From the sequence record OR958571.1: 64,000 nt of DNA; one strand, written 5' to 3'. A program made the position numbers and the translations under genes. The stretch's first letter is position 1; the number at the start of each line of letters is the position of its first letter. Of the stretch, positions 26,151 to 26,422 are shown one piece after another. The notes below the pieces were generated by a model. It was given only the letters and a program-made list of their open reading frames with translations, searched no databases and was not told the origin of the DNA. This stretch comes from Escherichia phage 121/2022-2B.

Positions 26151-26179
26151 TATTTTTCCTTTCAATTCATGGGTTAGTA

Positions 26180-26212
26180 GATTAATTATACAATAAATAT
26201 ATAAAGCAATAA
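26180..26212 (-). promoter_or_regulatory. Middle promoter for gene 56
   Basis: tTGCTTTA, 11 nt, TATAAT on the minus strand. Confidence 0.55.
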
Positions 26213-26221
26213 GGAGGACAT

Positions 26222-26422
26222 ATGGTACAAAAATTAATGGCACTTGTTAATGCCATCAAAGGTAATAAAAAACGTATAGCTTTTACTATTTCTGCTATGA
26301 TAGGAATTTTACTCTGGAACTTTATTTTATCACCAATTGCAATTGCACATGGTGTTAATATTCCAGTAGTTACTCTTGATACATTCGTAGATCTAGCATT
26401 TGCTTTAGTTGGGTTAATTTAA
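26222..26422 (+). CDS. Candidate plus-strand small membrane protein (66 aa)
   Basis: Consensus AAGGAGG 5 nt before ATG; two hydrophobic segments; fills the 56-61 gap; stop overlaps the gene 61 stop. Confidence 0.4.
   Translation: MVQKLMALVNAIKGNKKRIAFTISAMIGILLWNFILSPIAIAHGVNIPVVTLDTFVDLAFALVGLI

Follow-up and report, generated by a model that had tools for sequence, protein, structure and literature searches.

In the sequence analysed here, holin t, soc and gene 49 are T4-type late genes organised as short-leader units in which (A/T)ATAAATA lies 18-31 nt before the ATG and is combined with a strong Shine-Dalgarno (SD) sequence; in T4, these three are established as genes transcribed late. 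The small, envelope-targeted, non-essential-type T4 proteins Imm, Sp, RI and Ac are encoded on the early strand, under early or middle promoters. The closest described relative of the open reading frame (ORF) reported here is RB32ORF030w, which corresponds to phrog_2024 and pVOG VOG1982 and carries the label 'hypothetical protein'. The ORF, from Escherichia phage 121/2022-2B (OR958571.1), is orthologous to RB32ORF030w and alike in position and strand, with nothing substantive separating it from that family except that the T4 reference record is without the coding sequence; it is therefore already catalogued in relatives and in PHROGs as a hypothetical gene and is not new. Its upstream region resembles those of holin t, soc and gene 49, however the products of these genes are unrelated to the ORF product, and late transcription is a matter we infer for the ORF. 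The role proposed below would place the product among small, envelope-targeted, non-essential-type proteins such as Imm, Sp, RI and Ac, and sp is located 2 kb away, however there is no homology to any of these four. Small holins and pinholins of classes II and III are likewise membrane-embedded proteins of 60-80 aa with polar residues in hydrophobic helices, probably sharing late expression with the ORF, but the ORF product differs from them in having no charged C-terminal tail, no endolysin linkage and no sequence or fold match.

The window, the whole stretch of 64,000 nt that was analysed, comes from a phage that is, by sequence, a Tequatrovirus of the T4 type: the 401 bp around the ORF share 100% identity with Escherichia phage vB-Eco-KMB42, and their identity to wV7, RB32, RB51 and many further Tequatrovirus genomes is 97-99%. 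The ORF occupies 26222..26422 (+), with its ATG at 26222 and a TAA at 26420-26422, and encodes a product of 66 aa, MVQKLMALVNAIKGNKKRIAFTISAMIGILLWNFILSPIAIAHGVNIPVVTLDTFVDLAFALVGLI. It is flanked by two genes on the opposite strand, gene 56 for dCTP pyrophosphatase (dCTPase; 25632..26150 (-), product beginning MAYFNEC...) and gene 61 for DNA primase (26419..27447 (-)), the latter convergent with the ORF. An earlier note, made from the sequence alone, had described a plus-strand ORF of 66 aa as the only one filling the space between 56 and 61, and both statements hold, the ORF being directly present in the sequence and no other ORF of at least 30 aa being found in the gap when both strands were scanned. 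The gap itself measures 268 bp and not the 270 bp given there. The reported overlap of the stop codons was also found, in a tail-to-tail arrangement where the ORF and gene 61 (TAA 26421..26419 (-)) have TTAA at 26419..26422 in common, and the same 4-nt overlap with gene 61 occurs in T4, T6, SA20RB, JK42, moskry, L020, L021 and L027. The SD sequence AAGGAGG is present before the ATG at 26211..26217, with a spacer of 4 nt (ACAT) instead of 5. The source phage is without dam and segF at this locus (26150-26420), and gene 56 directly faces the promoter region of the ORF.

The ORF product gives a full-length match to the phrog_2024 profile, in which residues 2-66 align with positions 1-65 of 65 at E 2.3e-31, and it is 97% identical to the RB32 copy, RB32ORF030w. 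By tblastn the ORF is found in 692 phage records, with approximately 500 at 90-100% identity (Tequatrovirus) and 190 at 44-56% identity (Mosigvirus and Gaprivervirus). Including distant members, the tblastn searches place the family in at least ~860 deposited T4-like genomes, and these members extend to JS98-type phages, Klebsiella phages of the KP15 and JIPh_Kp122 types, Enterobacter phage CIP9, Salmonella phage Melville, Citrobacter phage CF1 and Edwardsiella phage PEi20. Profile searching across 5.8 billion proteins identified a second subfamily, which is found in Klebsiella phages and which in Gaprivervirus takes the form of a tandem paralog. The family is nonetheless small, since only 17 clusters were returned when 1.84 billion cluster representatives were searched exhaustively by HMM. 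Its members, 52-70 aa in length, retain the pattern W-N-x4-P...G...P...[DE], in which P38 is invariant in 26/26 aligned members and W32, N33, G44 and P48 are shared by at least 90% of them; further on, position 53 is acidic. This motif is kept by three distant members (P0114, P0117 and P0119), of which P0114 matches phrog_2024 at 6e-11.

The ORF, its SD, the upstream motif and the synteny recur together across relatives. The context was inspected at 14 T4-like loci, and at each of them the ORF lies beside the 3′ end of the primase gene on the strand opposite to its neighbours. A single gene separates the two in some phages, namely a 124-aa gene in L022, a homing endonuclease gene in DK-13 (L006, 1872-2621) and a paralog of the ORF in VR25. 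The VR25 gene (L007, 1701-1901) is a second, diverged paralog of 66 aa belonging to subfamily B and located directly after the ORF; the Gaprivervirus paralog has an SD of its own and is without the promoter motif, so that it forms a two-gene unit with the ORF. Among the distant homologs, the members at L024 and L025 are found in non-T4 phage or prophage contexts and the member at L026 beside T4-type genes, and all three are co-directional with late or tail-proximal genes.

Annotation of the ORF is uneven. The RB32, RB51 and RB14 records name it RB32ORF030w, while most others carry 'hypothetical protein'. In the T4 reference NC_000866, an empty gap of 309 bp is left between the end of dam at 17625 and the start of 61 at 17935, although an intact, unannotated ORF is present there at 17738..17938 (+). 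The T4 region (15606-17938) differs in content from that of the source phage, with dam located between 56 and the ORF and segF beside 56. A time-resolved transcriptome and proteome study of T4 counted only features annotated in NC_000866.4 (PMC9697503), and for this reason the ORF was left unmeasured in that work. A search of the literature found no paper mentioning the ORF and no usable T4 ribosome-profiling, proteogenomic or transcription start site data covering it. In T6 (AP018814; L002, 1501-1503) the ORF start codon is ATT instead of ATG, and the coding sequence is annotated from Met6. We rejected 'putative head morphogenesis protein', the label used for it in T6, as the names given in this region of that record are plainly unreliable; soc is named 'terminase small subunit' and gene 56 'ferredoxin'.

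Comparison of the ORF among relatives points to selection on the encoded protein. Between genera, the frame is open at 65-66 codons in Tequatro-, Mosig- and Gaprivervirus with dS values of 1-4, which are saturated, and dN/dS is 0.1-0.4; codon position 2 has 10-15 changes compared to 30-44 for positions 1 and 3. Within Tequatrovirus, 14 of the 22 variable codons are synonymous, and variable sites are distributed over the three codon positions as 8/2/12. The codons for N33, P38 and G44 show synonymous variation only, and the replacements that do occur in the product are conservative (I/V, A/T, A/V and N/S). Absence of coding constraint in relatives had been named in the earlier note as evidence that would count against the gene, and the outcome favours coding. 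By these sequence comparisons, the frame is under coding constraint and the ORF is a genuine conserved gene.

Upstream of the ORF on the plus strand, the sequence AATAAATA is found at 26192..26199, 22 nt before the ATG, and differs by one mismatch, as the earlier note had reported, from the T4 late-promoter consensus TATAAATA (-13 to -6). In 20/20 T4-like loci collected, NATAAATA is located 24-41 nt upstream of the start codon and an (A)AGGAG(G) SD begins 10-13 nt upstream of it. The ORF and SD recur, with the motif, in every related genus examined, consistent with the conservation for which the earlier note had suggested looking. Both elements are kept despite unrelated upstream flanks, which contain dam in T4 and other small ORFs in L020-L022. 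The first position of the motif is more variable; the Klebsiella phage Potts1 has a perfect TATAAATA, and A, G or C occurs there in the other lineages. For T4-like late promoters, conservation of the T at -13 is reported to be poor, with A or T common (Nolan et al.; PMC1524935). With this T present in one lineage only, Potts1, the promoter of the ORF may be weak. No sigma70-like or MotA-type site was found upstream of the ORF on the plus strand.

The distribution of ATAAATA in the window supports reading the motif as a promoter element. It occurs 7 times compared to an expected 41.5 +/- 6.4 in this 64-kb, 34% GC sequence, a six-fold depletion that fits selection against stray late promoters. 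Holin t is preceded by an identical AATAAATA and an identical AAGGAGG SD, gene 49 is preceded by AATAAATA, and soc by TATAAATA. AAGGAGG itself occurs 3 times in the window, and 2 of these are directly before ATGs downstream of AATAAATA. Because the motif is conserved in 20/20 loci, depleted in the window and found before holin t and gene 49, late gp55-dependent transcription of the ORF is likely on sequence grounds. The overall reading put forward in the earlier note is supported: the ORF was taken there for a genuine plus-strand gene that encodes a small membrane protein, is equipped with an SD and a late-type promoter, and lies inside an early/middle block transcribed from the minus strand.

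Other copies of these elements in the window were also inspected. The AAGGAGG at 45070 is not an SD candidate for a new gene, and the ATAAATA sites at 3593 and 53307 are not promoter candidates for new genes. The former of these two sites (3593-3599 (-); GAGGAATAAATAATG) falls in RBS-spacer sequence that separates motA from the following gene, and a further site at 975-981 (-) is antisense inside holin t with no ORF downstream. A fourth ATAAATA site is the palindromic partner of the gene 49 site: immediately upstream of the start of gene 49 (endonuclease VII) at 53305 (-), a palindrome, AATAAATACCCTTA...TAAGGGTATTTATT, is located at 53306-53344 with the late-promoter-like motif within one arm. 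A hairpin with an internal late promoter has also been described for gene 49. The palindrome resembles the arrangement of a hairpin and an internal late promoter described for T4 e and I-TevI (PMC3014915).

The 66-residue product is predicted to be a membrane protein. AlphaFold2 (AF2) modelling with the family alignment gives a mean pLDDT of 79.5 and helices at residues 2-12, 16-42 (pLDDT about 85) and 52-63. Two hydrophobic segments had been described in the earlier note, of which that at residues 19-42 is a clear transmembrane (TM) segment and that at residues 47-66, while hydrophobic, is probably not a full span. Alignments, AF2 and hydropathy place the TM helix at codons 19-42 (26276..26347 (+)), containing W32, N33 and P38, with a 19-residue Kyte-Doolittle mean of up to 2.0. 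The second segment, at a Kyte-Doolittle value of 1.86, may be hydrophobic enough for a second span, yet D53 and D57 fall within it, and the helix modelled there by AF2 is only 12 residues long. This short acidic C-terminal helix (codons 52-63, 26375..26410 (+)) appears amphipathic, with D53 and D57 on one helical face and a C-terminal hydrophobic moment of 0.40, and the tail after P48 amounts to only 15-20 residues across the family and contains polar residues. A single TM helix followed by an amphipathic helix is preferred because the C-terminal segment has D53 and D57 and is short and polar-containing across the family; in the model, the C-terminal helix probably lies at the periplasmic face, amphipathic or re-entrant, and is not a second full span. 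The N-terminal part contains 4-8 K/R in 23/26 members, the C-terminal part is neutral or acidic, and the closer relatives have no K/R after residue 43. The orientation of the product is probably N-in, given its K/R-rich N-terminus and the neutral or acidic stretch beyond the long helix. Helices may associate with one another, as suggested by the near-invariant Asn and the invariant Pro within the TM segment.

Searches of the product against Pfam, NCBIfam and PADLOC gave no significant match, and a PDB sequence-profile search gave no match. With Foldseek against the PDB and BFVD, the only clear match was the ortholog itself, the others being insignificant. A match to AaeX (E 0.013) falls far below the cut-off and was dismissed as compositional. 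No link of the ORF to the e, t, rI or spanin genes and no match to a family of known function was identified. A lysis cassette was sought near the distant homologs at L024-L026 and none was found, the neighbourhoods yielding only a weak 'minor tail protein' match and Endonuclease_7 genes; a lysozyme gene is located 1.5-3.5 kb away at L025 and L026, and is not adjacent. Elsewhere in the window, an ORF of 46 aa at 45121-45261 (-), located between ORFs of 207 aa and 400 aa, encodes a very hydrophobic product (MIFLGYVILFLAFYLF...) and is, from its sequence, another possible small membrane protein.

The strand opposite the ORF carries elements of its own. A MotA-type middle-promoter-like site for gene 56 is found at 26185..26207 (-), consisting of GCTT (26207..26204), a 13-nt spacer and TATAAT (26190..26185), and its spacer overlaps the plus-strand AATAAATA. 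The earlier note had placed the gene 56 middle promoter here, and the MotA-box/-10 arrangement agrees with the middle promoter that the SA20RB depositors annotate at the equivalent position. An 11-bp hairpin (26259..26234) followed by UUUUUG is located at 26224..26259 (-), with a folding energy of -12.4 kcal/mol (z = -4.3) that none of 200 shuffles equals, and probably serves as the intrinsic terminator of minus-strand transcripts that leave gene 61. It is present in T4 as well, and is evident in Tequatrovirus only and not in other genera. The hairpin overlaps codons 5-13 of the ORF, placing a dual constraint on that stretch. On the plus strand, folding revealed no terminator-like structure after the ORF (z about 0), and a terminator annotated by others just past the ORF stop is given no support by folding. 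Transcripts of the ORF therefore probably run on antisense into gene 61.

These features allow several other explanations of the locus to be weighed. The region could be a non-coding regulatory spacer that combines the gene 61 terminator with the gene 56 middle promoter, the plus-strand ORF having arisen by chance in AT-rich DNA; the region does hold a significant terminator hairpin on the minus strand and a middle-promoter-like site, and the T4 reference, JS98, VR20 and SH7 records leave the ORF unannotated. Against this, an open ORF of the same length is maintained across genera at saturated synonymous divergence with dN/dS below 0.45, its most conserved residues show synonymous variation only, the hairpin is confined to Tequatrovirus while the ORF is found more widely, and homologs occur in unrelated contexts. 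The constraint data exclude an accidental ORF within a regulatory spacer, and we regard this explanation as extremely improbable. It is also conceivable, but improbable, that RNA is the main product, with late plus-strand antisense transcription through 61 and the upstream early genes damping or clearing their mRNAs and the protein being secondary. Such a role would suit the lack of a terminator-like structure on the plus strand past the ORF, as well as the tail-to-tail contact with the 3′ end of the primase gene, which is conserved in most T4-like loci. It is at odds with the strong constraint on the protein, with the retention of the promoter-SD-ORF unit where a gene intervenes before primase (L022, DK-13 and VR25), and with the family members in non-T4 phages that have no convergent primase. 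An antisense side-effect may, however, coexist with a protein function.

The remaining explanations accept a protein-coding gene and differ in its timing or role. Early or middle expression, as for the neighbouring genes, with the product acting for instance in superinfection exclusion or host takeover at the membrane, would be in keeping with the location of the ORF inside an early/middle block beside sp and other small early genes; the Sp homolog is a separate gene at 28615-28908. The ORF is nevertheless on the strand opposite to all of its neighbours, has no sigma70-like or MotA-type site upstream on its own strand, and retains the late-type motif as its only conserved upstream element. The product also has no Pfam match to the Imm or Spackle families, a Pfam scan at E up to 10 giving no family for it, and early or middle expression is accordingly given little credence. 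Somewhat less improbable, though still quite unlikely, is a lysis protein of the holin, pinholin or antiholin type, a name found in a few database records: orthologs are labelled 'Holin' in OE5505 and 'putative holin' in KP1079, however these are depositor names with no evidence attached. Being small, membrane-embedded and probably late, with one or more TM domains (Kyte-Doolittle up to 2.0; AF2 helix 16-42), the product has the general build of a holin, and its conserved TM Asn and the acidic face of its C-terminal helix would suit oligomerisation. Matches to GTA_holin_3TM were seen in 3/26 members but are weak (best E 0.03), no holin-family match is significant, and Pfam returned 0 hits for the window protein. 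A charged hydrophilic tail is lacking, as the C-terminus (...DLAFALVGLI) is hydrophobic and no K/R occurs after residue 18. In the T4-like loci inspected the gene lies between 56 and 61 and does not adjoin an endolysin gene, and the phage already encodes the T holin (854-1510).

The ORF looks like an accessory gene. Its product is 25-55% identical where gp56 is 79-84% and gp61 59-73% identical, and this faster divergence compared to its neighbours, the ATT start in T6 and the duplicated copy in Gaprivervirus are the basis for assigning accessory status. The explanation that we favour, with better than even confidence, is that of a genuine T4-type accessory gene encoding a late, dispensable inner-membrane protein that associates through its TM helix and modulates a late envelope event. 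Late in infection, RNA polymerase with gp55 would start approximately 6 nt downstream of AATAAATA, producing an mRNA with a short leader on which the strong SD would drive translation of the 66-residue protein, and the transcript would probably continue antisense into gene 61. Once inserted in the inner membrane, the protein would have its N-terminus, rich in lysine and arginine, on the cytoplasmic side, a single long TM helix at about residues 19-42, and the short acidic amphipathic helix on the periplasmic side. W32, N33, P38 and G44 would be positioned in or at the end of the TM helix, P48 in the following loop and the acidic residue at 53 beyond it, a pattern suggesting that the protein acts through association of its helix with that of another copy or of a partner in the membrane. 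The product is probably not a structural or replication component. As a dispensable modulator it may act in lysis timing, lysis inhibition or late superinfection control, and while speculative, this is the most likely role. A stronger version, in which the product is a late component of the T-even envelope, for example a partner of the T holin, RI or spanin or a late superinfection block, that was missed since the T4 reference leaves it unannotated, is considered unlikely.

Apart from these possibilities this is an ordinary small hypothetical gene, and the by-products of its analysis, namely evidence for a conserved late promoter and a gap in the T4 reference, are of modest interest. T4 is the reference for this group of phages, and most transcriptome, proteome and screening studies count NC_000866 features only; the ORF at 17738..17938 (+) has gone unmeasured because it is missing from that record. 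Adding the ORF to the T4 record would be a cheap annotation fix, and would provide one more candidate for T-even envelope or lysis functions.
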